DNA from: Planctomycetota bacterium | Lineage (GTDB): Bacteria > Planctomycetota > GCA-002687715 > DRQF01 | DNA length: 38,019 nt | Assembly (NCBI GenBank): GCA_027001995.1 | Contig: JALTLO010000019.1 | Span: forward strand, 48,874 to 86,892 | Direction: 5' to 3' | Shown: in pieces, positions 5,132 to 36,268 of the stretch | Layout of the letters: each line of letters begins with the position of its first letter | How positions within the stretch are numbered: position 1 is the stretch's first letter | Program-made: the position numbers and the translations under genes | Notes under the pieces: model-generated | What the model was told of the DNA's origin: nothing | Databases searched by the model: none | What the model saw: only the letters and a program-made list of their open reading frames with translations

Positions 5132-5383
5132 TCAGGTGGCGACAGTGTGGCTAACTGTTGAAGTAGAAGAACTATCGGCAACATGGATCGTGACCGATTG
5201 CCCCGCTTCCGGTGCTTTGAAGCAGATTGTCACCGTATGTTTGGCTGGGTTATGTTTCAACTTTAGGCTAACGGCGGCCCCAGAACTCAAAGCGCGTGCG
5301 GAAAAACCAGCACCAACGCCAGAAGCCGTTATGCATACTGTAGAGCCTGGCTCCACAAAAATTGGCCCGGTGATTGAGATCAT
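5132..5383 (-). CDS. Small beta-rich two-Cys protein, cassette 1 (Ig-like fold inferred)
   Basis: 83 aa, one of five paralogues with consensus MI-x-I/L-x-G-P/S...V-E-x-G-x-x-V-C-I/L-T...NP...C-F...HTV. ATGA overlap with the upstream gene. Confidence 0.8.
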   Translation of the reverse strand: MISITGPIFVEPGSTVCITASGVGAGFSARALSSGAAVSLKLKHNPAKHTVTICFKAPEAGQSVTIHVADSSSTSTVSHTVAT

Positions 5384-5865
5384 GACGCCCTGATCGTGGC
5401 AATAAGGTCTTCGATCCGCGTGCGGAGCTTAGCATGTTTGATTGAACCCAAGGTGGATTCAATCACCCCCTGAACAGGCTTTAAGGCGACAGGGTCAATA
5501 GACTGTAGAACCCTGAGAGCTGTCAAACGCGTTTGGATAAACCGATCTTGCAAGGAGTTGCAGACCAGATCGTACAAAGCGACATGCCCTCGATCCCCAA
5601 TCCAACTCAATGCCACATTCCTCTTTTCCTCAGTTCCATTCAGCAACCTCGCAACAATCCTAGGGCGACCAGATGAAGCATAGAGAGTATCGAGAATCCC
5701 GTACTCCGCCACGAGGATTGCATCAACACTGGACAATGAGGGAGCCGTCTCAGACTCCCCAACGAAACGGTTGAGGCCGAGGGCGGTGATACCCACAATC
5801 CCAATGGCGACAGCGGTTCGACGAAAGAACTGGCGGCGCGCGATATCCACGGTTTGAACTTGCAT
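5380..5865 (-). CDS. Twin-arginine-leader HEAT-like protein, cassette 1 (leader type A)
   Basis: Start moved to MQVQTV (ATG 5865), which follows AAAGGA. ARRQFF plus a hydrophobic stretch; helical C-terminal domain with W-I...H..YDLVC..L.D and LKP. Confidence 0.8.
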   Translation of the reverse strand: MQVQTVDIARRQFFRRTAVAIGIVGITALGLNRFVGESETAPSLSSVDAILVAEYGILDTLYASSGRPRIVARLLNGTEEKRNVALSWIGDRGHVALYDLVCNSLQDRFIQTRLTALRVLQSIDPVALKPVQGVIESTLGSIKHAKLRTRIEDLIATIRAS

Positions 5866-5941
5866 AGGGATTTCCTTTCGACGGCAAACTCCAAACATAA
5901 ACATTCCAAATTACCTGACGCCGTCTTTCGCAGGGGTGGAC
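5747..5941. repeat. Type-A leader/upstream direct repeat, copy 1 (~195 bp)
   Basis: Matches 7621-7815 with about 5 substitutions counted by eye. Confidence 0.95.
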
Positions 5942-6057
5942 CATAAAATTTCGTGGAATCCGAAAAAACTCAGAGAGCCTTAGAGCCCAACGCCGACAAG
6001 GTCACGCAAGAACATATCGTGCGTTAGACTTCACTATCAAGAATAAATCTCCGGCGA

Positions 6058-6315
6058 TCAAAATCTGCTGATTACTGTATGGCTAACGCCTTTTGGCCCA
6101 CTATTATCGCCAACATGCACGATCACACCGGCACCCGCCGCAGGGGCAACAAAACAAACCGTCGCGGTACGCTTCTTGGCATTGATGATGATAGTCACCT
6201 TAACCGGAAGTCCAGACGACACCGCCGTGGCAGAAAAACCTGGGCCGACATTCGACGCGGTTATGCACACATTGGACCCTGCTTCAACGAAACTAGGGCC
6301 ATTCAACCGAATCAT
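6058..6315 (-). CDS. Small beta-rich two-Cys protein, cassette 2
   Basis: 85 aa paralogue MIRLNGPSFVEAGSNVCIT...VCF...SHTV; ATGA overlap. Confidence 0.8.
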   Translation of the reverse strand: MIRLNGPSFVEAGSNVCITASNVGPGFSATAVSSGLPVKVTIIINAKKRTATVCFVAPAAGAGVIVHVGDNSGPKGVSHTVISRF

Positions 6316-6788
6316 GACGCCTCAATCTCGACCAACAATCTGTCAACTTGCGCGCGGAACTCACGACTCTTAATTCTGTCGTTTGTTTCTCCAATCAACT
6401 GCAGATGTGGTTTCAACGCTGGATACCCGATTCTGGCTAAAACGACGAAGGCTGCCTTTTGAACTTCTTTGTGTCTTGCCCCAAGAGAAACACAGACAAG
6501 ATCATACATCGATGCATGCTTACGATCTTCAATCCATTGGAGGGTCCTAACGGCCTGTGATGGAGTCCCATTGGCAACGACAGCCTCAATCTTGGTGCGA
6601 CCAAGTGTGGCGTAAAATACATCGAGAGACCCGAAATCGGCTACGATTTCAGCCTCGATTCCGTTCGGCACAGCCGCCTTCATCTCGCCAGCAGAGTAAC
6701 GAACGCCCAAGGCAGCGATTCCAACAATTCCAGCGGCGGTCCTAGCAAAAAAGAGTCTGCGCGAGAAAAACGACCTGGGAATAGACAT
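6312..6788 (-). CDS. Twin-arginine-leader HEAT-like protein, cassette 2 (leader type B)
   Basis: SRRLFF plus a hydrophobic stretch ending MKAA; conserved WIEDRKHASMYDLVC and LKPH; AGGAG upstream. Confidence 0.8.
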   Translation of the reverse strand: MSIPRSFFSRRLFFARTAAGIVGIAALGVRYSAGEMKAAVPNGIEAEIVADFGSLDVFYATLGRTKIEAVVANGTPSQAVRTLQWIEDRKHASMYDLVCVSLGARHKEVQKAAFVVLARIGYPALKPHLQLIGETNDRIKSREFRAQVDRLLVEIEAS

Positions 6789-6887
6789 GACTGCGATAAT
6801 CTCCTGCTTTTATCTCAAACAATGTGAGCGTCTATTGTTCTTGACGTAACTTCGTGAACTTGCGGACCGGGAAATCTTTGTTCTTTG
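6671..6887. repeat. Type-B leader/upstream direct repeat, copy 1 (~217 bp)
   Basis: Matches 8565-8782 with roughly a dozen differences, including a 1-nt indel. Confidence 0.95.
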
Positions 6888-6999
6888 ACGAAAATTGTGA
6901 CAAATAGCGAATAACGTCAGCAAAATTCGGTAATTCGCTGTGAGAATTCTTGGAAAGAATGAACCCGCCAGCGAAAAATCCAAGTCACACGGGCAGACT

Positions 7000-7257
7000 C
7001 TACCGGCGTACGATCACAGTATGATTATTGGCTTCCGATTTGTTGTTGCCCGTAACATGAACGGTAACCGTGCTACCGCCCGCAGGTGCGACGAAACAAA
7101 GTACGGCTGTGTGATTTTGCGGATTGATCGTCACTTTCAACTTGACCACGGTTCCCGGTGAACTCGCAATTGCGCTAAACCCACTTCCAATGTTTGTTGC
7201 CGTAATACAAACATTGGAGCCTGCTTCCACAAAGCTTGGTCCACTTAACGGAATCAT
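7000..7257 (-). CDS. Small beta-rich two-Cys protein, cassette 3
   Basis: 85 aa paralogue MIPLSGPSFVEAGSNVCIT...LCF...NHTV; ATGA overlap. Confidence 0.8.
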   Translation of the reverse strand: MIPLSGPSFVEAGSNVCITATNIGSGFSAIASSPGTVVKLKVTINPQNHTAVLCFVAPAGGSTVTVHVTGNNKSEANNHTVIVRR

Positions 7258-7739
7258 GACGATTCTATTTCCACCAACATCCCACGAACTTCTGACAGGA
7301 GCTCCCCATCCTTAATACTGCGACTCACTGCCTCAAGCGCGGCGGCATGGGGCTTCAGAGTTACGCGGTCGAGACCATTCAGCGAAGCATATGCAACTTT
7401 CTGAATTTCTTTCCTGCCGTCACCCAAATACAAGCACAACAAGTCGTACATTGGCGCATGTCGCCGTCGGCCAATCCAAAGTAGGGTGCGAGACACTTGA
7501 GAAATCGTGCCCGTCGCCAACACCAGCTCTATCTTGGAACGACCAGCCGTCGCGTAAAAAGTGTCTAAGCGGGTGTAATCAAGGGCGATGTCTAGCTTGG
7601 CTGCATTGGTCGGGCCAGCAGTCTCAGACTCCCCAATGAAACGGTTGAGGCCGAGGGCGGTGGTACCCACAATCCCAATGGCGACGGCGGTTCGACGAAA
7701 GAACTGGCGGCGCGCGGTATCCACGGTTTGAACTTGCAT
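7254..7739 (-). CDS. Twin-arginine-leader HEAT-like protein, cassette 3 (leader type A)
   Basis: Start moved to MQVQTV (ATG 7739), which follows AAAGGA. Leader nearly identical to cassette 1; WIGRRRHAPMYDLLC and LKPH. Confidence 0.8.
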   Translation of the reverse strand: MQVQTVDTARRQFFRRTAVAIGIVGTTALGLNRFIGESETAGPTNAAKLDIALDYTRLDTFYATAGRSKIELVLATGTISQVSRTLLWIGRRRHAPMYDLLCLYLGDGRKEIQKVAYASLNGLDRVTLKPHAAALEAVSRSIKDGELLSEVRGMLVEIESS

Positions 7740-7815
7740 AGGGATTTCCTTTCGACGGCAAACTCCAAACATAAACACTCCAAATTACCTGACGCCGTCT
7801 TTCGCAGGGGTGGAC
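7621..7815. repeat. Type-A leader/upstream direct repeat, copy 2
   Basis: Matches 5747-5941 at an offset of 1874 bp. Confidence 0.95.
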
Positions 7816-7948
7816 TATGAAATCTTTAGAAATTTCTATTTTCTGCTCACATCCGACAGCCGAGCGCCCATGGATGCCAGATGGAACCCTGGGGCAAGGC
7901 TAACCAATGAAAATCTTCGGCGATCTGAGAAGCCGAGGGACTTAGCCC

Positions 7949-8203
7949 CTACAATCCAAAGACTGTATGGGTCATTCTCTCGCTGGCAGTGTTCTTCACA
8001 TGAACAGTCACAGCCCTTGCGCCCGGGGGTATAGTGAAGCAGATTTTCGCCCTGTGTTTCGCAGGATTATGGATCACCTTCAGCTTGATCCTTTGGGATC
8101 CGCTCACAGCGGCGTTTGCCGAAAAGCCCGGGCCAACTCCAGTCACCGTGAGACACACCTGGGCACCCACTTCAACGGCGGATGGGCCGCTTATTTTGAT
8201 CAT
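7949..8203 (-). CDS. Small beta-rich two-Cys protein, cassette 4
   Basis: 84 aa paralogue MIKISGPSAVEVGAQVCLT...ICF...THTV; ATGA overlap. Confidence 0.8.
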   Translation of the reverse strand: MIKISGPSAVEVGAQVCLTVTGVGPGFSANAAVSGSQRIKLKVIHNPAKHRAKICFTIPPGARAVTVHVKNTASERMTHTVFGL

Positions 8204-8682
8204 GACAATTCGACATCATTCAGCAGTCGCGTGAAGACTACTTTAAGCTCATTCCGCTTTACCCCTGGGGCAGCGGATTGAAGAATCCCTAGATGGGGCT
8301 TCAAGAGAACTGGGTCCATATTCACCAGCAAACGCAATGCAACTTCTCGCACCTTCATTCTTCCGTCTACCACCGACCTACATATCAGGTCATAGAGAGG
8401 CTTATGCCCCCGCATTTCAATCCACTCCAGGGCATAGATTTTCTTCTCAACTGTTCCGTTTTGAAGTCGTGCTTCAATCCTAGGCCGACCAAGGCTCGCA
8501 AACTGAGCATCGAGTAGCGCGAATTCAGAAGCCTCCGCTACTGCCAAGACTTGCTTGGTCGGGCCAGCCGCCTTCATCTCGCCAGCAGAGTAACGAACGC
8601 CCAAGGCGGCGATTCCAACAATTCCAGCGGCGGTCCTAGCAAAGAAGAATCTGCGCGAGAAAAACGACTTGGAAATAGACAT
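8200..8682 (-). CDS. Twin-arginine-leader HEAT-like protein, cassette 4 (leader type B)
   Basis: SRRFFF leader nearly identical to cassette 2; WIEMRGHKPLYDLIC and LKPH. Confidence 0.8.
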   Translation of the reverse strand: MSISKSFFSRRFFFARTAAGIVGIAALGVRYSAGEMKAAGPTKQVLAVAEASEFALLDAQFASLGRPRIEARLQNGTVEKKIYALEWIEMRGHKPLYDLICRSVVDGRMKVREVALRLLVNMDPVLLKPHLGILQSAAPGVKRNELKVVFTRLLNDVELS

Positions 8683-8782
8683 GGCTGCGATGATCTCCGT
8701 GCTTTTGTCTCAAACAATGTGAGCGTCTGTTGTTCTTGACGTAACTTCGTGAACTTATGGACCGGGAAATCTTTGTTCTTTG
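8565..8782. repeat. Type-B leader/upstream direct repeat, copy 2
   Basis: Matches 6671-6887 at an offset of about 1894 bp. Confidence 0.95.
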
Positions 8783-8838
8783 GGCAAAAGACAAGGAAAA
8801 AGAAGTAGCACTATCCAGACCCATAAGTCCACAAAGGA

Positions 8839-9096
8839 TCATCGGCCAAAAACGGTGTGCGTAACCTCCTCTGCCCCTGAATTATCCGAGACCACGATCG
8901 ACACGCTTTCCCCAGAAGCTGGGACGGTGAAACATACAGTAGCCGTATGAGCCGCCGGGTTGATGGCGACCTTGAGCTTGACTGCTTTCCCCTTCCGCTT
9001 GATTGCGGTTGCATTGAAACTTGCGCCAATGCCAGAAACCGTGAGACAGATCGTGGATCCAGGTTCTCCGAAATGTGAACCGCTGATCGAGATCAT
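8839..9096 (-). CDS. Small beta-rich two-Cys protein, cassette 5
   Basis: 85 aa paralogue MISISGSHFGEPGSTICLT...VCF...THTV; ATGA overlap. Confidence 0.8.
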   Translation of the reverse strand: MISISGSHFGEPGSTICLTVSGIGASFNATAIKRKGKAVKLKVAINPAAHTATVCFTVPASGESVSIVVSDNSGAEEVTHTVFGR

Positions 9097-9605
9097 GATG
9101 ATTCGACATTTCCAAGCAAGATAGCCAATTGCCGTTTGAAGTCTTGGCTCTTACATGCACCCTGAGCTTCTGAAATCAAGTTTATGTGTGGTTTCAATGC
9201 GACAGGGTCAAGGATGCTCAGGGCACTAGCAGCATAAAGCCTCACTTCCATATTCCCATCTTGAAGACAGCGACATACGAGATCGTACATGTTCGCGTGC
9301 TTGCGACGAACAATCCATTCGATGGCGGATTTCCTCCTGGCGGGGGTTCCATTGGAGATTCGTGCAGCAATACGACCTTTGCCAGAAGTTGAATAGTGAG
9401 AATCCAAGACGACAAAATCAGCCAGAATTTTGTCCTTGCCCGTCAATACGGGCACCGCAGTCTCAGACTCCCCAATGAAACGGTTGAGGCCGAGGGCGGT
9501 GATGCCTGCGATGCTGGCGGCGGCGGCTGTGCGGGTGAAGAAGCGGCGGCGACTGGCACGTTTGCGGTCAGCGATGTTCTTCTTGGCTTGGTCCGCTGCG
9601 GACAG
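9093..9605 (-). CDS. Twin-arginine-leader HEAT-like protein, cassette 5 (A-like leader; start uncertain: CTG 9605 or upstream ATG 9752/9758)
   Basis: SRRRFF...GITALGLNRFIGESETA; WIVRRKHANMYDLVC and LKPH. The in-frame CTG at 9605 follows AGAGGA-ttttcct, the same layout as AAAGGA-aatccct-ATG in cassettes 1 and 3. Confidence 0.7.
   Translation of the reverse strand: MSAADQAKKNIADRKRASRRRFFTRTAAAASIAGITALGLNRFIGESETAVPVLTGKDKILADFVVLDSHYSTSGKGRIAARISNGTPARRKSAIEWIVRRKHANMYDLVCRCLQDGNMEVRLYAASALSILDPVALKPHINLISEAQGACKSQDFKRQLAILLGNVESS
9457..9501. repeat. Partial third copy of the type-A leader repeat (45 bp)
   Basis: gcagtctcagactccccaatgaaacggttgaggccgagggcggtg is identical to 7618-7662. Confidence 0.9.
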
Positions 9606-10179
9606 AGGAAAATCCTCTGTGCCCCCGTGGACAATGGGGCCACAGAAGTAGCAATTATCAATATGGAGTTTTGTGTCCCCTGATCGATAGCCCAATTGCC
9701 ACGACTTCAGATAAATCTCACAACTAAATGGTCCTGGTGCGTTCGTTTTCATCGACATGATCTCATTGCAGAGTTCTCAAACTAACCACCTGCGGCAAAC
9801 AGGCCTGTATCAACCGCTCCATAATAGTCACCCCAAGTCGTCTGTAAAGAACTATTCCTGGACGATCTTGATCACCTTGGAAGCTCTCTGCGCCGACTCT
9901 GGCAGAAAACGCCTCACACTGAGAAAACGCGGAACAATCAGATAGATACTTGGCCATGGTCAGGCCCTGGATTAAACCCCAACGAATTCTCCTTAAACAA
10001 CAACCCCACAACAACTTAAGAATGAAGGTGGGCCCGTGGCTTCGGTGATGTCGGATTGGCCCAAAACTAGGGTTTCGGAATAATCAAAATGAAGCCGCGA
10101 TATGAGAGCTATCGAAACTCATGCAGATTTCTAAGATGCTCCCTGGGCGTCGCACACACAAATTCCACGGAGAGAGAAG

Positions 10180-26319: not shown

Positions 26320-27147
26320 GTGGTTCTTGGCATCAATACGAACTTGTTTTCAATCAACGCCCAGCGCAATCTGGCGAAAGCGCAGTTTCGATTGGGCAAG
26401 AGCCTCCGGCGACTTTCCTCTGGTCAAAAGCTCAGGAGCGACGATGCCGCTGGGTTTGCCATAGCCGATCGCTTGAGAGCGCAAGTCAGGAGCTTAGCCC
26501 AGGCTTCCCGTAACATTCAAGACGGCATCAGCGCCACCCAAATTGCCGAAGGTTCTTTGGACGAAAGCTCAAGTATTCTCATTCGTCTCCGGGAGTTGGC
26601 TATTCAAGCATCCAACGGCACCTTGTCCTCAAGTGATCAAGCCTCTCTACAAAGCGAATTCTCATCGCTGCGCAGCGGCCTCGATCAGATTGCCAGCACC
26701 ACGTCCTTCAACGGACTCAACTTGCTGGACGGATCTCTTTCTTCCATCGACTTGCAAATAGGTTCCGGAACGAGCCTGAGTGATGTTTTTTCGATCGGAC
26801 TCTCAAATACCAATGCTTCCACCCTTGGCCTCTCAAGTTTGAGTATCTCGGCTGACCCAGCCAGTGCCATCGATGCCATCGACCTTGCCATCAATTCGGT
26901 GGCATCCATTCGTGGCACTTTTGGTGCAGCCCAAAGTAGCCTTGAATCACGCCTTAATTTTGTTGGGATTCAAGCGGAGAATCTGGAAGCAGCTCGATCA
27001 AGAATCACCGACTTGGATTACGCCAAAGAAAGCGCAAAGTTCACCAGAAACCAAATCATGCTCCAAGCATCCTTGTCGATTCTGGCCCAGGCAAACCTGC
27101 AACCACAGGCACTCTTGGGCCTCATCGAAGGCGCAAGGATCCCTTAG
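26320..27147 (+). CDS. fliC: Flagellin (minimal, D0/D1 only)
   Basis: INTN..SINAQRNL...RLSSG...DDAAGFAIA at the N-terminus; NLEAARSRITDLDYAKE...QAN.QPQ at the C-terminus; GTG start after GAGG. Confidence 0.93.
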   Translation: MVLGINTNLFSINAQRNLAKAQFRLGKSLRRLSSGQKLRSDDAAGFAIADRLRAQVRSLAQASRNIQDGISATQIAEGSLDESSSILIRLRELAIQASNGTLSSSDQASLQSEFSSLRSGLDQIASTTSFNGLNLLDGSLSSIDLQIGSGTSLSDVFSIGLSNTNASTLGLSSLSISADPASAIDAIDLAINSVASIRGTFGAAQSSLESRLNFVGIQAENLEAARSRITDLDYAKESAKFTRNQIMLQASLSILAQANLQPQALLGLIEGARIP

Positions 27148-27233: not shown

Positions 27234-27965
27234 TCAACGCGTGGCGTCAATAACTCTCACCTGGACATGACATGTACGGCACTTACTCTCCAGAGCAATA
27301 GCCGGAATTCTCTTGTGGACAATTGCTGGAGCCCCACTGATGCCATTGTCATGACACATACGACAATCATCCTTCAGCCAAGCCTTCCTGTGGGACTGGG
27401 AAGCCGGTATTGACGGAGGAAATGCAAAGCTCGCGAAGCCTCGATCTTCTGCGATCTTACTCTTCGCTTTTTCCTTGGCACCCCAATGAGGCAACTCGTT
27501 GGGGATCTCAACATGGCACGTGCGGCATTTCGCCGTCTTCAAGATTGGTGACATGCCCCGATGAACAATCTCCGGTGCTTTGCCAACGCCCGTTTCGTGG
27601 CAACGCAGACAATCGTCTTGTTGCCATGCGGACGCGTGCCAAGCGCTATCCGAGATGGTCGGCGGAAAGGCGTCGTCCTCAAATGGCGTTTCTGATTGCC
27701 TAACAGCAACAACTTTAGCCGGTGCTTCCACGGGCTTGGGCTTCATCGGGACCTTTGCCTTGACTTCCTCTTGGGATGCTGGCAAGGACTCGGCCAATTC
27801 AGTTTCTCCTTTCGTCGTTTCCTCAGGCGGGTGTGAGGCCAAAACAACTGGTGTGGCTTCTTCTCCTATGGCCTGGGGCTCGTCGCCGTTCTCATGACTT
27901 GTACAACTCAGTACAACGAGGAGCAGCGCCGAACACAACAGGCTCGAACAAATCCATCTATACAT
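27234..27965 (-). CDS. Lipoprotein tetraheme cytochrome c with two NapB-like diheme units
   Basis: Lipobox-like VLSC; four CxxCH motifs (CLRCH, CRTCH, CRMCH, CRTCH) in two repeats of FPP-x-I...H...CxxCH...AP-x-I-V-H...CRTCHV; directly downstream of napA. Confidence 0.8.
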   Translation of the reverse strand: MYRWICSSLLCSALLLVVLSCTSHENGDEPQAIGEEATPVVLASHPPEETTKGETELAESLPASQEEVKAKVPMKPKPVEAPAKVVAVRQSETPFEDDAFPPTISDSAWHASAWQQDDCLRCHETGVGKAPEIVHRGMSPILKTAKCRTCHVEIPNELPHWGAKEKAKSKIAEDRGFASFAFPPSIPASQSHRKAWLKDDCRMCHDNGISGAPAIVHKRIPAIALESKCRTCHVQVRVIDATR

Positions 27966-28025
27966 GATGTTTCTCCTTCGGATCCAGTTTGCGGGTGTTG
28001 GTCGAATTTAGCTGAACAACACGGG

Positions 28026-30347
28026 CTATGCCTTCTCCAACTTCACAGCGCACATCTTAAACTCTGGTTGTTTCGAACCAGGATCGAAGGCGTCTATGGT
28101 GACTAAGTTGATAAGACTCGGAACGTCTTCCCAGTGCATCGGGACAAAGATCATGCCGGGCTGAGGCGCTTGGGTGATCCGCACTTTGACCGTAGCCTCA
28201 CCTCTCCGCGAGGTGATCTTGATCTTCTTGCCATCTCGAATTCCCAGTTTCTTAGCGTCGTCTGGATGCACCTCAACAAAGCATGTGGGGTAAGCACGGC
28301 GCAATTCTCGAGCCTTCATGGTCATAGTGCCTGTATGCCAATGCTCCAGGACTCGACCAGTGGTGAGAACGAAAGGATAATCAGCGTCAGCAGGTTCGGC
28401 CGGACCAAGGGCGGGCCTCAGCCATACAGTCGCTCGATGGTTGGGGGCGGCGTAAAATTTCGTCTCGCCCGGCTTCAAAGTGAGGTCGGCGTATGGGCCG
28501 GCATCGAGACATGGATCTTCTCCCTTGACGAACCGTCTCGCGGTTCCAGGATGGCCCACTGTTGGGGCCGGCCACCTCACTCCCCTTTCCTTACGCAACC
28601 GCTCTCTTGTGATACCGCGGAAGTCGTATGCGGTGTCTTTCGACGCCAACATCATCTCTTCCCAAACGTCGTCTGTGGTCTTGAACTTACTGGACACATA
28701 GCCCTTAGGGACGACTCCATGGGCCTCCAAGCGACCAGCGAAATCAAGAAGGAAATCGAAGTCTGAAACGGTTCCTGCTGGGGCTGGAATCACTTGAGGG
28801 TGCAGTTGATAGCGGCGTTCGGACATGCCGAAGACACCCGTTTTTTCTGACCAGATGGCCGCTGGGAGCACCACATCGGCTAGCTCTGTTGTCCTGGTGG
28901 GGTAGCCGTCAATGACGCAAATAAACGGTTTGTTAGGCCGAGGTTTCCCCATAGCATCGCGGTAAACCGAGACATTGGGAAGACTATGCCCCGGGTTGGT
29001 GGTCAAGATGAGCATGGCTTGCACCTCATCTCTTGCCAAGGCCTGGAACATGGCGATGGTATGCAGACCTGGTTTGGGCTTGATGGTGCCGGGTTTACAA
29101 CCCCAGATCTTCTCCATCTCTTCTCTGTGCTTGGCTTTCTTGATGGCGCGGCCATAAGGAAGAATGTGGCACAAAGAACCGGTGTCGCGGACGCCACCAC
29201 AGGCATTGGGTTGCCCTGTAAGGGAAAATGGTGTTGCCCCAGGTTTGCCGATTTGCCCGGAGATGAGATGCAGATTGTGCATCAGGTTATTGACCCAGAC
29301 ACCTCGGGTTCTTTGGTTGAGCCCCATAGTCCAGAATGAAGTTGTTGGCCCCACAGCGAAGATTTTCGCTGCTTCCTCGATCTTGGCTTGAGAGACACCG
29401 GTCTGAAGCTCAGCCTGCCGCGGAGTGTAGTTCTTGCTGAGCCACTCAAAGTACTCATCAAACGTCACATTGGTGGGCTTTTTGTCTTTGACGATCTTGA
29501 ATTGGACGTTCTTTTCGATGAAAGCCTTGTCATGCTTCTTGTCTCGGATCATGCAGTAGGCCATAGCGTGAAGAACGGCTAAGTCATAGCCCGGCACTGG
29601 GTCGAGATGGACGTCAGCGATGGTGTCGATGGGGCTCTTTCTCGGGTCAAGGGTAATGATCAACACATCACGATTTTGTTGTTTGCGGGCCAAGATTTGG
29701 TCGTAAATGACGGGATGGCATTCAGCCGTGTTAGAACCGACCAAGAAGAACACTTTGGCGTGTTCAATGTCGTCGTAACTTCCCATGGGTTCATCTTTGC
29801 CGAAGGTAGAAACATACCCTCCGACGGCGCTGGCCATGCACAGGCGTGGATTACCTTCAACATTGTTGGTGCCGATGCCACCTTTGAACAAACGATTGGC
29901 GAGATAGCTTTCTTCGCTCATGGCTTGGCCCGAGCCATAGTAGGCCACAGAGTCTGGACCGTGCTTCTTGATGGCACTGGCAAACTTCTCGGCCACCAAG
30001 GTCATGGCCTCGTCCCAGGTAGCTGGTACGAGTGTGCCGTTCTTGCGAATCATGGGGGTCTTAAGACGGTCCTTGGCATGGACGATTTTAGGCAAGAACA
30101 AGGATTTGGCGCAGACCAATCCTTTCGTGGTGGGATGCTCCACATCTCCTCGAAGGGCCACCAAACGATCGTCCCGCACCCCAAGCATGACCCCACATCC
30201 GGTGCCGCAGAATCGGCAAACAGATTTGTGCCATTTGAGGGGGCTTGGAGCTTCGAACACCTTGCCCATCGCTTTCTGACTACTCGTGGCTGTAACAACG
30301 GCTGCCATCGCTGCCGCCTTCATGAAATCTCTTCTTGTATTTTCCAT
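28026..30347 (-). CDS. napA: Periplasmic nitrate reductase catalytic subunit
   Basis: AAGGAG before MENTRRDFMK (Tat motif); CRFCGTGC [4Fe-4S] motif; NPRLCMASA Mo ligand; SLTGQPNACG; LTTGRVLEHWHTGTMT; SKQPEFKMCAV. Confidence 0.95.
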   Translation of the reverse strand: MENTRRDFMKAAAMAAVVTATSSQKAMGKVFEAPSPLKWHKSVCRFCGTGCGVMLGVRDDRLVALRGDVEHPTTKGLVCAKSLFLPKIVHAKDRLKTPMIRKNGTLVPATWDEAMTLVAEKFASAIKKHGPDSVAYYGSGQAMSEESYLANRLFKGGIGTNNVEGNPRLCMASAVGGYVSTFGKDEPMGSYDDIEHAKVFFLVGSNTAECHPVIYDQILARKQQNRDVLIITLDPRKSPIDTIADVHLDPVPGYDLAVLHAMAYCMIRDKKHDKAFIEKNVQFKIVKDKKPTNVTFDEYFEWLSKNYTPRQAELQTGVSQAKIEEAAKIFAVGPTTSFWTMGLNQRTRGVWVNNLMHNLHLISGQIGKPGATPFSLTGQPNACGGVRDTGSLCHILPYGRAIKKAKHREEMEKIWGCKPGTIKPKPGLHTIAMFQALARDEVQAMLILTTNPGHSLPNVSVYRDAMGKPRPNKPFICVIDGYPTRTTELADVVLPAAIWSEKTGVFGMSERRYQLHPQVIPAPAGTVSDFDFLLDFAGRLEAHGVVPKGYVSSKFKTTDDVWEEMMLASKDTAYDFRGITRERLRKERGVRWPAPTVGHPGTARRFVKGEDPCLDAGPYADLTLKPGETKFYAAPNHRATVWLRPALGPAEPADADYPFVLTTGRVLEHWHTGTMTMKARELRRAYPTCFVEVHPDDAKKLGIRDGKKIKITSRRGEATVKVRITQAPQPGMIFVPMHWEDVPSLINLVTIDAFDPGSKQPEFKMCAVKLEKA

Positions 30348-30396
30348 GACCTGCTCCTTTTCCTTGAGCATGACCTCAAGGCGTTGCCGGTTGCCC

Positions 30397-30675
30397 TCAG
30401 GCTTCGGCGATTCTGTCTGGATCTTCTTCGAGTTCGACGGACACCGGCCAAGCTCCCCAAACACCAGGAGTAGCCTTGATGGGCCCTTCGAGAATCTCTT
30501 CGGCCCCGGCGGCGTCTTTGGTTTCGATCAGGATTCCGACGCGGTCTTGGTCGTCTAGATCGAAGGTTTCAACTCCGGGAATCTGGTTTAGTCGTTGTCT
30601 GACTTTCACGGACGCCCCAGGTTCGATGCGGGCGAAAGCGCCTACCACAGCAAGGGTTTCAATGTCTTGTCTCAT
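30397..30675 (-). CDS. napD: NapD chaperone
   Basis: ~92 aa ferredoxin-like protein (LNQIPGVE...RVGILIET) immediately upstream of napA; ATGA overlap with the preceding gene. Confidence 0.75.
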   Translation of the reverse strand: MRQDIETLAVVGAFARIEPGASVKVRQRLNQIPGVETFDLDDQDRVGILIETKDAAGAEEILEGPIKATPGVWGAWPVSVELEEDPDRIAEA

Positions 30676-31124
30676 CCCATTCCCCCACAACTGGCCAGGC
30701 TGTCTGCTGCGCGGCAGAGGCTTGCGTAGTATTCATCAACAGAAAGTCCGAGGAGGGCGGAGCCGTAAAGCTCTGCCTCCTCGGACGTGACGATTTCGCC
30801 ATAGTTAATACGTGCCACGTGATAGGCAACGATCGCAGGGAGAACGGGGTCTGAGCGAAACTTCGGGTGGACAAAAAGCTGATAACCATCTTTTGGCCCC
30901 GTGTCCTTCGGTTGTGCCCAGGCGAACTCACCGTCTTGCAAGTTGGAAGCGTCGAAGATGAGGTCCGTAGCGAATCGAACACACTCCGCATCTTGCAAGT
31001 AAGCCATCAAGGATGCCTCACCATTCAGATCTGGATGACGTTTCTTTGTCGCCATGGCTTTCTCGACCACATGATCGCGCAGGGCAATCTTTCCGTCTTG
31101 TTCTGTCGGCTCGTGTCGCTTCAT
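30672..31124 (-). CDS. Hypothetical cytoplasmic protein in the hao-nap operon
   Basis: 150 aa with no signal peptide or CxxCH; coupled to napD by ATGA overlap. Confidence 0.75.
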   Translation of the reverse strand: MKRHEPTEQDGKIALRDHVVEKAMATKKRHPDLNGEASLMAYLQDAECVRFATDLIFDASNLQDGEFAWAQPKDTGPKDGYQLFVHPKFRSDPVLPAIVAYHVARINYGEIVTSEEAELYGSALLGLSVDEYYASLCRAADSLASCGGMG

Positions 31125-31159
31125 TTCACAGCTCTTTCTCTCTGCTTACGTCGCTGAAA

Positions 31160-32620
31160 TTACTTGGCGTAGCGCTTTAGGAAATCCTTCCGCGCTGCAT
31201 CTCTTCTGGCTTTTTCTTTCGGATCGAGCTTGTCGATTGCCCACCGGTGATTCTTGGTGTTCATCGTCTCAGTGATCTTGGCATCAAGATCCTTCGCCGC
31301 TTTCACCATGGCCGGGTCCTTTGATTCTTTGCCATCTTTCACCATGTGCCGCAATGCGGGAATATAGTGAGAGTAGAAAGTCTTGGCCAAATCGTAGGTT
31401 CCATGCCAGTGGGTGTAATCAGGAGCCATCATGGAAGCACCGTGACGAGCACGACGACCTTCATGATGCCAAAGCTCAAACCAAATCCAATCGACCTCAT
31501 GGGAGAAGGGCGCCTTATATGGCTTTAGCTTCTTAGCCAAAGCATACAGAGCCATGCCTGGTTTGGCATACTTCTCGTTATAGAGTTCGATCATTCCGTC
31601 GTACTGAATGTAGAAGTTCTCCACCCAGTTCTTGTTGTGGCAATTGCTGCACACATCCTTCATATTGGCGCGACGGACTTGCCAAGGGACGTCCTTACCA
31701 GGAAGTCCCATTTTGGCATCCGCAACCTCGGGGCGAACCGAAATCTTGGGTCTGTTGTTCCAACTGATCCGCATGCCAATGTCATGGGTAACCGGTTGAT
31801 TCTTGGTTTGGGACATATGGCATGTCGCACAGGTAGGTGCGGCCCAATAGTCTTCACCAACAATCCACTTGTTGGAATCCAGGTTCATCTTGTCAATATT
31901 CGAAAAGAAGGCGATACCGTGCTTCGACTCCTCGTAGATCTCCTTTTGAGGATGATCGGGTCCGAGGTGACATTTGCCGCATGTATCTGGATGCCTTGCT
32001 TGCGCCGCAGAAAATGTGTGGCGCGTGTGACAGGCGTTGCAAGATCCTTCAGTTCCATCCGGATTCAAACGGCCGATGCCGCTATTAGGATAGGTTGCAG
32101 GATCGAGCTTGCCATCAGGCAGAACTTTGATTTGAGAACCATGGCATTGCCAACAACCATTGACGGCAGCAGCAGAGTTACCATGGGGAAATCCAGGTGT
32201 GACGAAGTCGCGGTTTCCTTCAACAACTTCCGCGAGGACGTTGTCGAGAGATCCCAGAATTCGACCGGCCTTCGCATGATGCGAACCGGAGAACTCTTTG
32301 ACTTCCTTCTCGTGACAGCGTGCACAGTCTTTGGGGGAGACAATGACCGCTATCGTGTTGTTGTAGTGATTGACAGCATCCACATCCGATTTCTCGGCTG
32401 CATGACACTCATAACAACCAACATTGGCGCGATAGTGTTTGCTTTCGCCCCATTGCTGGTAGATACCAACGTTTTGCTTTTTGTGGCAATCGATACATTC
32501 TTTCGATTTCGCCGAGACTTCCGGCAGACCAAAGGCCTGCGCTTGGGCCATAGAGGCCGTTAGGAGTCCAACAAAAACGCAGAGAATGGCGCGCATTGTC
32601 CACTGGGTTAGATTTCTCAT
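31160..32620 (-). CDS. Octaheme cytochrome c of the hydroxylamine oxidoreductase (HAO) family, reductive-type signature
   Basis: AAGGAG before MRNLTQW; signal peptide ending AQA; eight CxxCH motifs (CIDCH, CYECH, CARCH, CWQCH, CNACH, CGKCH, CATCH, CSNCH); GPDHPQKEIYEESKHG, APTCATCHM and C-terminal MMAPDYTHWHG. Confidence 0.9.
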   Translation of the reverse strand: MRNLTQWTMRAILCVFVGLLTASMAQAQAFGLPEVSAKSKECIDCHKKQNVGIYQQWGESKHYRANVGCYECHAAEKSDVDAVNHYNNTIAVIVSPKDCARCHEKEVKEFSGSHHAKAGRILGSLDNVLAEVVEGNRDFVTPGFPHGNSAAAVNGCWQCHGSQIKVLPDGKLDPATYPNSGIGRLNPDGTEGSCNACHTRHTFSAAQARHPDTCGKCHLGPDHPQKEIYEESKHGIAFFSNIDKMNLDSNKWIVGEDYWAAPTCATCHMSQTKNQPVTHDIGMRISWNNRPKISVRPEVADAKMGLPGKDVPWQVRRANMKDVCSNCHNKNWVENFYIQYDGMIELYNEKYAKPGMALYALAKKLKPYKAPFSHEVDWIWFELWHHEGRRARHGASMMAPDYTHWHGTYDLAKTFYSHYIPALRHMVKDGKESKDPAMVKAAKDLDAKITETMNTKNHRWAIDKLDPKEKARRDAARKDFLKRYAK

Positions 32621-33894
32621 GAGACAGTCTCCTTTGACTTTTGGTCGGACTCCCCAGTGCCGACCGTTTCCAACGAATAGCTGTGATCGTAGGTAAGTTT
32701 CCCCGTGAGGACGGGAATCGTAATGCGTACAAAAATGGTGTAGGCCAAAAGACCGAAGGCCCAGATGCCCAAGCACACCAAGATCTCATTGGCAGTTGGG
32801 GCATACTCGACAATCTCGCCAAGTGGTGACGGGATGAATGCCGGAATAATCAGGCCCATGCCTTTTTCGATCCAGATGCCAACAATCATGGCCACACAGG
32901 CGATATTCAACCAAGCCACCTTCTTTACCGCCGGGGTGTAGAGAATCAAGAGTGCGATGGTGTTGAGTCCGATGGCACTCCAGATCCATGGCACCAGGGC
33001 TTCGTAGCGCCCAAGCCCGTGGTGGTTATCAAGACCGAAGAACAGGTACTTGGCAGAAATACTGTGGGCTGCCCCCGTGTAGAACTCGGTGAACAACTCA
33101 CACCCCAACAAGAAGGCATTGATAGTGAGGGCCACGGTGACGATGCGACGGAGCAAAGCCAAAGCCTCATCGGGCACATTGTAGTCAGTGAATTTGCGGA
33201 TAATCTGCAAGGTCAAGATGATAAATGCCGGGCCAGCGGCAAAAGCCGAAGCCAAGAAGCGAGGGGCAATGATGGCGGCGTTCCAGAATGGACGCCCTCC
33301 TAAACCGACGTAAAGGAATGCCGTCACCGTGTGAATACTGATGGCCCAGAACACCGCCAAGAAGACAAATGGCATATAGAACTTCTTGCCGGGTTTCTTC
33401 TTCTTATAGGCACACCAAACTAAGTAGCCACAGATGTGAAGGTTGAGCATCAAGTAGACGTTCAGAACCACAACGTCCCAGGTCAACATCGACATAGGAA
33501 AGTTGAAGCGCAAGAACAGATGCATGAAACGATCAGGGCGTCCCAAATCAACGGTCACAAAGGCCAAGCACATAAGAATGGCCGCCACCGCCAAGAGCTC
33601 ACCAAAGATGACGAGGTCATGAAGGGCCGTCTTCTTATAAATGTAAACCGGAATCACCATCATGGCTGCGGCCGCGGCCATCCCCACCAAGAAAGTGAAG
33701 TTGGCGATATAAAGGCCCCAAGAAACCTGGTCGGTCATACCCGTTGTGATCATGCCATCAACAAGCTGCTTGCAATAGGCGTTCAGGCCCAACAATGCCA
33801 CAACGGTCAGCAGTAGCATCCACAAGCGATAGCGCCAATCTCCGATGAAACTCAGAGCAAAGCAACGTTTCAGAAAGACAAGATAGGCACCCAT
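32617..33894 (-). CDS. NrfD/PsrC/DsrP-family quinol-oxidising membrane subunit
   Basis: About 10 hydrophobic segments; VSWGLYIANFTFLVG, VDLGRPDRF and SIHTVTAFLY motifs. Confidence 0.9.
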   Translation of the reverse strand: MGAYLVFLKRCFALSFIGDWRYRLWMLLLTVVALLGLNAYCKQLVDGMITTGMTDQVSWGLYIANFTFLVGMAAAAAMMVIPVYIYKKTALHDLVIFGELLAVAAILMCLAFVTVDLGRPDRFMHLFLRFNFPMSMLTWDVVVLNVYLMLNLHICGYLVWCAYKKKKPGKKFYMPFVFLAVFWAISIHTVTAFLYVGLGGRPFWNAAIIAPRFLASAFAAGPAFIILTLQIIRKFTDYNVPDEALALLRRIVTVALTINAFLLGCELFTEFYTGAAHSISAKYLFFGLDNHHGLGRYEALVPWIWSAIGLNTIALLILYTPAVKKVAWLNIACVAMIVGIWIEKGMGLIIPAFIPSPLGEIVEYAPTANEILVCLGIWAFGLLAYTIFVRITIPVLTGKLTYDHSYSLETVGTGESDQKSKETVS

Positions 33895-33896
33895 GA

Positions 33897-34853
33897 TTAA
33901 TCCCCTTTCTCTTCTGAACGATGATAATCTTCATCGAAGTAGTAGAAGAATCGAGGAATCGTGCCGACTTCTTCCTTCAAGACAAAAACTCGTTTGTGCT
34001 TCAGCACCTGAGACACATCGCTATTCGGATCTTTGATGTCACCAAACTTGCGAGCGCCAACGGGGCAGACTTCTAGGCACGCAGGATTTTGACCATTGCG
34101 TGTGCGATGCAAGCAGAAGTGGCACTTCTCCATCACCCCTTTGTGACGAGGGCGATTGGAAAGATAGGACATGGTCGGATTCACTTCTTCCTTCGGAATA
34201 GAAGGTTCTGTGAAGTTGAATCGTCGAGCAAAGTAGGGGCAAGCAGCTTCGCAATAACGACAGCCGATGCACCAATCATAATCAACAACGGTGATGCCGT
34301 CGGGCTCGGTCCAGGTCGCTTCCACAGGGCATACCTTGGTGCAAGGAGGGTTCTCGCACTGATGGCATTGGATGGGCATGTAGAAGTGGTCGTCTTTCGG
34401 CACCTTGGGGTGATCATAGGTGTGATCCCCCTTCTCGATGTCAATCGTGCCTCGAGGCATTTCCAAGACGCGGATGTACTGAATTTCAGGATCGCGACTT
34501 TGATTGTTTTCTTCCACGCAAGCATGGACGCACTTACGACAGCCAATGCAGGCTCCCAAGTTCAAAGCATAAACAAACTCGACACCATCTTTAGGTTTGA
34601 TGTCGCGGATGTCCGGACGAACCTTGTATCGTTCTTCCACTTCCTTGGTGATGCGATCCAAGACCTTGGCCATCTCGGTCTCGTCCAGCTCTTTGTAATG
34701 CTGTTGCAAGAATTTCTCGACGGTAAAGTCAGAGGTATCCAAAGACTTCAGAGGTGATAGGGCTGCAACCAAGGCGGCCATGCCCCCCGCTGCGCCTGTG
34801 GCGGCCCGGAAGAAACTCCGCCTATCCATGCTGCCATTGCTCGAGCAACTCAT
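33897..34853 (-). CDS. Tat-exported 4Fe-4S ferredoxin subunit (NrfC/DsrO-like)
   Basis: DRRSFF Tat motif; CIGCRKCVHAC, CHQCENPPCTKVCP, CIGCRYCEAACP and CHFC...PACLEVCP. Confidence 0.92.
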   Translation of the reverse strand: MSCSSNGSMDRRSFFRAATGAAGGMAALVAALSPLKSLDTSDFTVEKFLQQHYKELDETEMAKVLDRITKEVEERYKVRPDIRDIKPKDGVEFVYALNLGACIGCRKCVHACVEENNQSRDPEIQYIRVLEMPRGTIDIEKGDHTYDHPKVPKDDHFYMPIQCHQCENPPCTKVCPVEATWTEPDGITVVDYDWCIGCRYCEAACPYFARRFNFTEPSIPKEEVNPTMSYLSNRPRHKGVMEKCHFCLHRTRNGQNPACLEVCPVGARKFGDIKDPNSDVSQVLKHKRVFVLKEEVGTIPRFFYYFDEDYHRSEEKGD

Positions 34854-35488
34854 TTGTGTGATTCCTTGTTCGGGTGCATACGCAAGGTGTTGGGTCCTGG
34901 AAGAGGTGTCACAGGTGACATCGCCGGCGTCCGCGGGTGGTGAGGGTCATGGCATTCCGTGCAGGTCAGCTTCTTGCGCTCTCCCGCAGTCGAATCCCAA
35001 AATCCATTGGTGCGACCATGGATACCATTGTCCCAGTCTTTGCGCTTGCGCACATGACACTGGCCACATTGATCCACGACATCGGCATAAGGCATTTCAC
35101 TGCCGTCCAAGCCAGCCAACTTGTCACGATTCTCCCAGGCGTGACATGTGGAGCATTTCACATTGGGACCATGATTAAGCTTCACGTTTTGGTGCCGCAG
35201 AAGCTTGCGAGGCTTGTCACTCTTACTCACAACGCTGGTATGACAGTGCATGCAAGTGGCATCGTTCCCAGCTAACTTAATGGTGGGAGGATCTGTCATG
35301 GGAACGCGCCGGGGTGCTGCGGATAACAAAGCCCGATCGAACTCAGGGGTTGCAGCGTTGGGCAAATCGTCCAGATTAGGTCCCCAAAGGAACCACGCTG
35401 CCAGTCCGAACAACAAAGGACCGATGGCCCACCCTGGCACCCAGGGGGATCCAGGCTCTGTCGTTTGGTTTTGTTTGGTGTTGCTCAT
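34850..35488 (-). CDS. Membrane-anchored tetraheme cytochrome c
   Basis: N-terminal TM segment; CMHCH, CSTCH, CGQCH and CTECH followed by DPH; ATGA overlap with the ferredoxin gene. Confidence 0.85.
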   Translation of the reverse strand: MSNTKQNQTTEPGSPWVPGWAIGPLLFGLAAWFLWGPNLDDLPNAATPEFDRALLSAAPRRVPMTDPPTIKLAGNDATCMHCHTSVVSKSDKPRKLLRHQNVKLNHGPNVKCSTCHAWENRDKLAGLDGSEMPYADVVDQCGQCHVRKRKDWDNGIHGRTNGFWDSTAGERKKLTCTECHDPHHPRTPAMSPVTPLPGPNTLRMHPNKESHK

Positions 35489-35638
35489 CTCTCACTTTCT
35501 TCCTGTCCACCAGCCCGTGCTTCCCAAGGGCGGCACCGAAAGACTCGAAATCGGGGACCTACCCCCAGTTTCCGAGCCGGGACAGAAGGGAACGCAAAAC
35601 CGTGGCCATAAGGCTCAGAAATTCGAGTTTTCTGAAAA

Positions 35639-36268
35639 TTAGAAGATCAGGTGAGCAACGGTGACAACAAAGAAGGTCCACAACGTGGCGTAGGCCGACT
35701 CACGCATGCCAACGCGCTTGAGACCTTGGCGTCCGCCAGAACCACCAAGAGAAAGCGATTTCCTCACTTCTACCGTTCGCCAACAAAAAAACGGCAGCAA
35801 AAGAATAAGCAAACCAAAGGCACAAACATAAGATGCACCTCCGGCCACAGCAGCGCAGGGTGCGGCCAAAGCCAAAGCCCCCACAAAGAATGTCAGCGCT
35901 GGCAAAGACTGAAAACCCAAACGATAGGCGAGGTATGCCCCAAGTAGCCCGGGCAGGGCTGCTAAAGACCCCACAACAAAGAAGACCGGATTGGCCCCAA
36001 TTGAAATGGCAATCACAGGAGCGACCACGGCCAAGGTCAATCCAAGAAGAAAACGCAAGCGATCCCGCTGTCCGAATCTCTTAGCCAGCACACAACTCGT
36101 CAGGAAGATCCCTACGAACCCCAGGATGGCGAAAGAGGCGGCAACAAACTGCCCCCCCGCAAAGGTCAAACCCGCCAAAGCCGAAAGCATAAGAAACACC
36201 CAAGCCCCATGAGACCGAGTCGGATCTGGAAGCCCTCGCCGCCAAGATGGAAGGGATAAATCGAACAT
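35639..36268 (-). CDS. YwiC-like integral membrane protein
   Basis: N-terminal P..SHGAW motif typical of YwiC-like proteins; multiple TM segments; GGGAGGG before ATG 36268. Confidence 0.65.
   Translation of the reverse strand: MFDLSLPSWRRGLPDPTRSHGAWVFLMLSALAGLTFAGGQFVAASFAILGFVGIFLTSCVLAKRFGQRDRLRFLLGLTLAVVAPVIAISIGANPVFFVVGSLAALPGLLGAYLAYRLGFQSLPALTFFVGALALAAPCAAVAGGASYVCAFGLLILLLPFFCWRTVEVRKSLSLGGSGGRQGLKRVGMRESAYATLWTFFVVTVAHLIF

Follow-up and report, generated by a model that had tools for sequence, protein, structure and literature searches.

How does a bacterium dispose of nitrite when it carries two routes to nitrite and no canonical nitrite reductase? This question is raised by a nine-gene cluster on the minus strand at positions 27234–36268 of the window, by which we mean the whole 38,019-nucleotide stretch of contig JALTLO010000019.1 from a Planctomycetota bacterium (assembly GCA_027001995.1, hereafter G000). 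The cluster combines a periplasmic nitrate reductase (Nap), an octahaem cytochrome c of the hydroxylamine oxidoreductase (HAO) family and a membrane module; the octahaem bears a reductive signature, and the assembly contains no canonical nitrite reductase. On balance, these sequence features suggest that the cluster most likely takes nitrate to ammonium without NrfA.

The nine open reading frames (ORFs) are co-oriented and stand in the order given by the initial annotation, which their coordinates, intergenic gaps and haem motifs bear out:

35639..36268, minus strand: YwiC-like membrane protein, accessory and lineage-restricted (PF14256 E 2.6e-4, 21.7 against a cut-off of 25; six hydrophobic helices)
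34850..35488, minus strand: tetrahaem cytochrome c of the module (four CxxCH)
33897..34853, minus strand: Tat-type 4x[4Fe-4S] protein of the DsrO/QrcC/NrfC family (profiles; RR leader; 16 cluster Cys)
32617..33894, minus strand: DsrP-type membrane protein of the NrfD/PsrC family (NF045798, PF03916; ten predicted helices)
31160..32620, minus strand: periplasmic octahaem cytochrome c, reductive HAO family (eight CxxCH; Trp405 and Met397; without the cross-link Tyr)
30672..31124, minus strand: conserved protein of 150 aa that lacks a signal peptide (zincin/IrrE-like fold, no HExxH)
30397..30675, minus strand: NapD chaperone, start uncertain, with an open frame from 30690 (PF03927 E 1.4e-4, 22.4 against a cut-off of 28; precedes napA in close loci)
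28026..30347, minus strand: NapA of the Desulfovibrio desulfuricans type, a periplasmic nitrate reductase (Tat signal; domains for Fe4S4 and molybdopterin)
27234..27965, minus strand: tetrahaem cytochrome c of two tandem NapB-like dihaem units (four CxxCH; internal repeat)

The gaps along the cluster are 150, −4, 2, −4, 35, −19, 49 and 60 nt, the −19 becoming −4 when the ATG at 30675 is used. The ORF list and the NCBIfam and Pfam profiles revealed no napC, napG/H, nrfA or nirS/K inside the cluster, in agreement with the initial annotation. A convergent flagellin gene closes the cluster downstream, so the missing napGH cannot be put down to the end of a contig. A promoter scan gave 3 candidates against 6.1 expected, nothing usable standing above shuffled sequence, a terminator scan gave 17 against 10.3 expected with none between cluster genes, and no FNR- or NsrR-like box was found upstream.

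The octahaem appears to be a reductive-type HAO-family enzyme (epsilon-Hao/pMHC/IhOCC type), an assignment supported at several levels. It has eight CxxCH and zero CxxCK motifs, and its best PDB relative is 4qo5 (IhOCC; E 5e-52, and E 1e-12 in a fold search), which outranks Kustc0458 and Nitrosomonas HAO by sequence, profile and fold. In an alignment of a 135-hit set, from which rows longer than 720 aa were dropped, Trp405 sits in the column that holds the Tyr of Ruegeria HaoA and of anammox HOX/HDH-type rows, and the 496 residues aligned between Ruegeria HaoA and Nitrosomonas HAO pin this column to precursor Tyr491. Trp405 and Met397 therefore stand where oxidative HAO has Tyr467 and His459, mature labels that presume the precursor numbering minus a 24-residue signal. 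Of the 77 close rows, 76 have Trp in the Tyr column and all 77 have Met eight positions before it, a pair described as the epsilon-Hao signature (PMC8940962). In a quick HAO tree of 65 selected rows, with near-duplicates, fragments and long frames left out and SH-aLRT as the only support measure, the Trp/Met group is split from HAO, HDH and the anammox paralogues (SH-aLRT 99), and the window octahaem lies in a 31-row clade (SH-aLRT 99) with Thiotrichaceae and Sedimenticola, the tree being without any characterised member. The homologue of Ca. Thiomargarita nelsonii is 61% identical to it. The columns and the tree thus uphold the earlier view of a reductive-type octahaem without the Tyr cross-link, and the grouping with oxidative HAO/HDH that had been named as telling against that view was not seen. 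A predicted model is haem-free and superposes poorly (TM 0.34).

Close homologues are named 'hydroxylamine oxidoreductase/dehydrogenase' in databases, and the native orange protein of Beggiatoaceae has been reported to be multifunctional (PMC6449678), as would suit an enzyme that oxidises hydroxylamine and passes the electrons through the module into the quinone pool. This reading is very improbable. An oxidative HAO/HDH identity was rejected because the cross-link Tyr (P460) is replaced by Trp; in addition, the HDH model scores 57.9 bits against a cut-off of 900, identity to Ruegeria HaoA is 23%, neither haoB nor c554 is present in the cluster, and Tyr-less enzymes have negligible oxidase activity (PMC8042395). 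Two further observations concern octahaems in other genomes. A second copy of the octahaem (67%) occurs in two same-family genomes after a c554-like tetrahaem and not after the module (L164:5460-8138, L165:6982-9015), and a 2758-aa frame with 41 CxxCH lies upstream of the octahaem in a metagenome-assembled genome (MAG) of the Myxococcales (L056, first ORF).

The G000 assembly comprises 5.2 Mb in 204 contigs and is 92.1% complete, which limits every genome-wide negative accordingly. Besides NapA it holds a second nitrate reductase, narGHJI with narK. A genome search for nrfA, nirS, nirK, napC and napH, genes singled out in the initial annotation, found none of them, nirK giving only weak matches below cut-off, as did nosZ; a nirS positive control was detected at 8.8e-130. 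Sirohaem nitrite/sulfite reductase, dsrA and hcp were likewise not found in G000. With two nitrite-producing routes and no canonical nitrite reductase, the HAO-fold octahaems are the sole candidates for nitrite removal within this 92% assembly. The second of them (G000:C79:42086-43357; L093:8126-9358) is also of the Trp/Met type, shares 32% identity with the window octahaem, belongs to a separate planctomycete clade and has no quinol dehydrogenase or other redox neighbours nearby. G000 thus has two HAO-family genes, against 9–12 in anammox-type genomes of the phylum, and Planctomycetota MAGs are the closest relatives that bear a name; with hzs outside the searches, these data support the earlier suggestion that the host is probably a non-anammox planctomycete.

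The genome also encodes aa3- and cbb3-type oxidases, a bc-type complex, alternative complex III (ACIII), separate Psr/Ttr-like molybdoenzymes and two qNor, one beside norR and the other beside an Rrf2 gene, plus a divergent NorB-like pair. narGHJI and narK lie directly upstream of the ACIII operon (G000:C123:22000-41000, L094), a layout as in PMC10732223. Elsewhere, a non-canonical NO reductase is possibly formed by a dihaem cytochrome together with a haem-copper oxidase subunit that is highly divergent (COX1 E 7e-15; G000:C193, L098:5999-8193), and a formate dehydrogenase-like gene contains one in-frame TGA, probably encoding selenocysteine (G000:C197:62497-64506, L097).

The genes upstream of the octahaem had been labelled NrfC/NrfD-like, a label that the profiles do not sustain. 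The membrane protein matches DsrP (NF045798) at 410.7 bits, above the cut-off of 350, and the wider NrfD/PsrC family PF03916, whereas it reaches only 27.1 of 347.6 bits against NrfD. The iron-sulfur protein scores 170.9 against DsrO (cut-off 200), 146.8 against QrcC and 108.8 against NrfC (cut-off 377.6). NrfCD proper was rejected, as both the NrfC and NrfD equivalog cut-offs were missed. DsrMKJOP was rejected as well: dsrM and dsrK are not in the cluster (no genome-wide search for them was made), the cytochrome is a tetrahaem and not the trihaem DsrJ, and dsrA is missing. With no dsrA in the genome, the DsrO/DsrP-like pair stands outside the Dsr pathway. The haem motifs of the module tetrahaem are invariant in 65 homologues; a hydropathy scan did not resolve an N-terminal anchor, and the cytochrome probably acts as an electron outlet in the manner of NrfB or QrcA, with the DsrP-type protein as the likely quinol-oxidising subunit.

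Synteny was counted by tblastn on the 80 closest octahaem loci; some loci recur between sets or come from related MAGs, so these counts are not independent. A DsrP-like gene lies directly upstream of the octahaem in 56 of the 80 (54 of 71 with enough DNA), and this recurrence of the core order places the arrangement far beyond chance. The module tetrahaem gene was found in 52 of the 80 and napA (>300 bits) in 16. Among 47 loci with both flanks of at least 8 kb, 36 hold the module, and nap accompanies it in 8 of these. A second set of 80 loci, from anammox-type Planctomycetota, Hydrogenedentota, Myxococcota, Nitrospirota and Gammaproteobacteria, has a DsrP-like gene in 44, in the order octahaem-cytochrome-FeS-DsrP in 18 of those. 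Starting from nap, 10 of 12 close napA loci hold an octahaem, in either order. The conserved unit is therefore cytochrome c-FeS-DsrP-octahaem, with nap as an optional neighbour: the linkage between octahaem and nap put forward initially does recur, but it is not general. Anammox-type genomes (records of Brocadiaceae and Scalindua) carry the cytochrome-FeS-DsrP-octahaem module at ~60% identity, with insertions between genes in some (L162, L187-L193).

DsrO and DsrP are the best family matches of the module, and sulfur metabolism was raised as an alternative for the comparable locus of Thermosulfurimonas (PMC5276818), so module and octahaem might together reduce a sulfur compound such as tetrathionate, polysulfide or sulfite. 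We regard this as quite improbable, given that the genome has neither dsrA nor a sirohaem reductase, the neighbours are nap genes, OTR and MccA are not among the significant PDB matches of the octahaem, and the Psr/Ttr-like molybdoenzymes are encoded separately.

In the nap half of the cluster napA is intact, and no gap exceeds 60 nt. NapA has as its best PDB match 2jio, the NapA of Desulfovibrio desulfuricans (E 1.6e-232), with an identical active-site stretch RLCMASA, and shows both the Cys-Met active site and the features of Tat export; its 647 bits against NF010055 fall under the cut-off of 904, the NCBIfam NapA cut-offs being fitted to the proteobacterial type. The last cytochrome carries four haems as two tandem units, and a dihaem NapB label was accordingly rejected. 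It has no direct Pfam NapB match, a single-sequence PDB search gave no NapB, and the comparison with solved NapB reached E 0.26. Among tetrahaems that follow napA in other lineages, 6 of 7 tested match Pfam NapB at E <= 0.001, five of them above cut-off, and the window cytochrome aligns to such NapB-hitting tetrahaems with an hhalign probability of 98%. The earlier NapB-like label needs correcting to a tetrahaem of tandem units, and the protein is probably the electron donor to NapA in a NapB/NapM role.

The wider distribution of these genes was examined in 301 Planctomycetota genomes, 63 of which have a DsrP-like gene at E <= 1e-60. An octahaem adjoins 11 of the 12 closest DsrP-like loci, the remaining one meeting a contig end. 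Among 20 more distant loci, the module adjoins napA and a tetrahaem in 14, with no octahaem, and 6 have other neighbours. Conversely, 18 of 20 further napA loci consist of octahaem, napA and tetrahaem without the module. Three groups of genomes were compared on this basis, the module+Nap group drawing 14 genomes from fetched loci and ten from coordinates alone. In the 13 module+octahaem genomes we found nrfA in 0, nirK in 0, qNor in 5, nosZ in 1 and narG in 6; in the 24 module+Nap genomes the corresponding counts are 14, 2, 10, 4 and 2; and in the 18 octahaem-napA genomes they are 2, 1, 7, 3 and 8. Either napA or narG is present in 9 of the 13 module+octahaem genomes. The counts of the NapA family search at E 1e-170 are minima, since known napA genes of G000, G262, G128, G252 and G068 escaped it. 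A nirS survey at E 1e-60 returned 0 of 58 genomes, the control not being detected in the same survey. Two loci types are worth recording in their own right: the module beside napA without octahaem, the two being divergent in 12 loci and co-oriented elsewhere, is a candidate new Nap quinol dehydrogenase (L167-L180, L358, L360, L361, L363), and a compact octahaem-napA-tetrahaem operon is shared by 18 planctomycete genomes, with the window's own genus among them (L267-L284).

The claim of nrfA independence gains from this survey, since nrfA is nearly excluded from octahaem-bearing planctomycetes (2 of 31) compared with module+Nap genomes without an adjacent octahaem (14 of 24). More broadly, an NrfA-family gene occurs in 11 of the 90 genomes that have an HAO-family gene and in 61 of the 194 that have none (odds ratio 0.30, p 4e-4), a comparison that excludes 17 anammox-type genomes and in which kin are not independent and the groups are analyst-defined. 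This distribution fits an octahaem standing in for NrfA, with no tie to NO reductase.

We propose the following mechanism. The DsrP-type protein would oxidise quinol and pass electrons through the [4Fe-4S] chain of the DsrO-type protein to the tetrahaem cytochrome and on to the octahaem, which would reduce nitrite, a sequence of steps we hold with good confidence. NapA would supply the nitrite, and nitrite derived from NarGHI would feed the same octahaem. Provided that the octahaem reduces nitrite, its main product is rather probably ammonium, the octahaem then replacing NrfA. NapA, having lost napGH, would take its electrons through the tandem NapB-like tetrahaem from the same module, a step to which we give a slight preference over supply by ACIII or the bc-type complex.

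Several observations weigh against this proposal, some bearing on the product and others on the donor. Regarding the product, the genome encodes two qNor plus an additional NorB-like pair but no nosZ, qNor is present in 4 of 4 same-family genomes tested, and Kuenenia has a Tyr-less HAOr that forms NO when given a mild donor (PMC8042395), all of which would suit an octahaem that reduces nitrite to NO only, followed by qNor and N2O, as a truncated denitrification without nirS or nirK. A recombinant orange Beggiatoaceae protein showed very weak nitrite reductase activity (PMC6449678), the C79 octahaem could be the real nitrite reductase, and 4 of the 13 module+octahaem genomes, one of them anammox-type, gave neither a napA nor a narG match. 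Furthermore, incomplete and related genomes inflate the co-occurrence statistics. The NO route is nevertheless unlikely. A qNor match is lacking in 19 of 31 octahaem-bearing genomes and is equally frequent without the octahaem (cNor being outside the survey), so NO as an obligate product is not favoured; HAOr-type paralogues lie on the far side of the HAO tree, and the exclusion pattern concerns nrfA. Ammonium is the likelier product.

Even a nitrite-reducing octahaem might serve to detoxify nitrite, NO or hydroxylamine without supporting growth by respiration. Such a role was proposed for the orange protein (PMC6449678), homologues on a Desulfosarcina plasmid (38–40% identity) lie beside hcp, norR and qNor, and the host is a facultative aerobe with aa3 and cbb3 oxidases. 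A dedicated four-gene membrane module, its repeated joining with three different napA lineages and the lack of a stress regulator within the cluster speak for respiration, and we consider detoxification improbable. Plasmid pairs of NapC/NirT and octahaem genes were seen in Desulfosarcina (L143:8341-10359), among hcp, norR and qNor genes, and in Desulfobaculum (L144:8284-10281).

Regarding the donor, the initial annotation had one quinol dehydrogenase feeding both NapA and the HAO-like enzyme. Of the 16 close napA loci that extend far enough downstream, 12 keep napG/napH-like genes, a same-family genome being among them (3 of 19 close loci end too early to count), so Nap has its own quinol dehydrogenase in most relatives. 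Nap lies within only 16 of the 80 octahaem loci, and the 18 octahaem-napA genomes without the module also gave no napH or napC match, which means that other donors such as ACIII must exist. In a DsrP tree of 45 rows, the window DsrP falls within a clade of 11 sampled rows that all neighbour an octahaem. Module and nap swap order between genomes. These findings, with ACIII and a bc-type complex encoded elsewhere and with the Nap of C. jejuni fed by Qcr (PMC6195509), would suit two separate units that are merely adjacent, the module serving the octahaem only and NapA being fed by ACIII or the bc-type complex or standing idle. That arrangement, which is compatible with the proposed chemistry, is a serious contender at somewhat under even chances. 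On the other side, sister modules are nap-linked without octahaem or napH: all 14 fetched loci of this kind adjoin napA, the 24 module+Nap genomes gave no napH match, and most of their 14 NapC-family matches adjoin nrfA, which makes the sister modules the sole nap-linked quinol dehydrogenase there. Loci of Acidobacteriota and Desulfobacterota show napA-tetrahaem-module as well, and in the DsrP tree Nap-only clades are interleaved with octahaem-linked ones. Moreover, three of the four close loci that lack napGH hold the module inside the locus, and napA in the window is intact and tightly spaced. The sister modules thus lend support to the shared-donor claim while napGH retention counts against it, and a single module feeding both NapA and the octahaem stands near even.

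The 150-aa gene accompanies the octahaem in 40 of the 80 closest loci; its product has no Pfam or NCBIfam match and nothing in Foldseek at E <= 0.001, its model (pLDDT 94.9) gives a middling zincin/IrrE-like match (VIA-align Z 8–9), and the HExxH motif is missing in the homologue alignment. Homologues of the YwiC-like gene were found in none of the 80 closest octahaem loci and in only 2 of 364 loci overall, both in same-family genomes and directly before the module. Elsewhere in the window, two adjacent genes at 1153–3881 encode BrxC/BrxD-family ATPases, possibly of a phage-defence locus; five short minus-strand ORFs (158–221 aa) at 5380–9758, ~0.9 kb apart, have no Pfam match; and the flagellin gene convergent with the cluster, at 26320–27147, encodes 275 aa almost without a variable domain.

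The scoring of nitrate fate in metagenomes, ammonium versus gas, rests on nrfA, nirS and nirK. G000 has two nitrate reductases and none of these three genes, and our sample suggests that the same holds for many planctomycetes. Should the octahaem make ammonium, the capacity for dissimilatory reduction of nitrate to ammonium (DNRA) is undercounted and 'hao' matches are misassigned to nitrifiers or anammox; if it makes NO, it would be an uncounted source of N2O. Outside the anammox-type genomes, 90 of 284 sampled genomes have an HAO-family gene and only 11 of those have nrfA, so that nrfA surveys would miss an ammonifier guild if the ammonium reading is true. A broader claim, which we put forward tentatively and think doubtful as a whole, is that the module joins NapC and NapGH as a third type of quinol dehydrogenase for Nap, that it swaps between NapA and octahaems and drives both here, and that octahaems take the place of NrfA across a large share of the non-anammox Planctomycetota, a sizeable ammonifier guild.

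The pathway itself is not new. In the nitrate ammonifiers Thermosulfurimonas dismutans and Dissulfuribacter thermophilus, both without NrfA, Slobodkina et al. (2017) described a four-gene locus that adjoins napMADGH and encodes an HAO-like multihaem protein, an NrfD-family protein, a 4Fe-4S protein and a cytochrome c; they proposed a function in nitrite reduction or sulfur metabolism (PMC5276818). Like the window, these 11-gene clusters have the four-gene set beside napA, napD and a tetrahaem and lack napC, napB and nrfA. They differ, by their published description, in having napGH, NapM before napA, hcp and OTR and in belonging to thermophilic sulfur oxidisers, whereas the window has neither napGH nor hcp and places a tandem NapB-like tetrahaem after napA. 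Desulfobacterota loci built in the manner of the 11-gene clusters (L326, L327, L331) match window genes at 35–53%. None of four genome scans for related loci yielded Thermosulfurimonas, Dissulfuribacter, a cable bacterium or the genome of the orange Beggiatoaceae. In the literature covered, mostly non-subscription and with supplements excluded, neither the module as a Nap quinol dehydrogenase nor nrfA exclusion in Planctomycetota was found; proteins of this kind may appear in the supplements to PMC10732223 and PMC12758564. In MAGs of Planctomycetota, Suarez et al. (2023) noted clusters of the NrfD type, most of them ACIII-like, close to nar/nap (PMC10732223).

Cable bacteria express nap and an octahaem, lack nrfA, and DNRA was shown by 15N in Ca. 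Electronema; no quinol donor was named for the cable-bacterial pMHC in that work (bioRxiv 2020.02.22.960823). The cable-bacterial nap-pMHC and the orange Maribeggiatoa protein BOGUAY_0691 share with the window a soluble Tyr-less octahaem beside nap and probably a clade with large sulfur bacteria and Nitrospirota, a link that runs through the 61% match to the Thiomargarita homologue. Cable bacteria use NapAB with NapGH, whereas the window has a DsrO/DsrP-like module translationally coupled to the octahaem, which is a concrete candidate for the quinol donor of the cable-bacterial enzyme and of those Nap systems that have neither NapC nor NapGH. The epsilon-Hao/reverse-HURM systems of Nautilia, Campylobacter and Caldithrix, the last with napMADGH and epsilon-Hao (PMC5317091), resemble the window in the eight CxxCH motifs, the Trp/Met pair, co-location with nap and absence of NrfA; the window differs in having no NapC/CycB-type donor and no hcp, an NrfD/PsrC-family module taking the place of the donor. 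E. coli NrfABCD likewise joins an NrfD-family membrane protein, a [4Fe-4S] subunit, a small multihaem and a terminal multihaem in one operon (PMC12285233), while in the window the terminal enzyme is an HAO-fold octahaem without CxxCK, the small cytochrome is a tetrahaem and the subunits score as DsrO/DsrP. At the enzyme level, Tyr-less HAO-family proteins reduce nitrite (PMC8042395), and IhOCC of Ignicoccus hospitalis (4qo5), without P460, is described as an octahaem nitrite reductase (PMC9250108), although it is archaeal, ~28% identical to the window octahaem in the fold alignment and has Phe, not Trp, at the Tyr column. Set beside these systems, the cluster is a real, intact, napGH-less form of a published candidate cluster for NrfA-independent nitrate ammonification, and what it adds to the published concept is breadth and testability.

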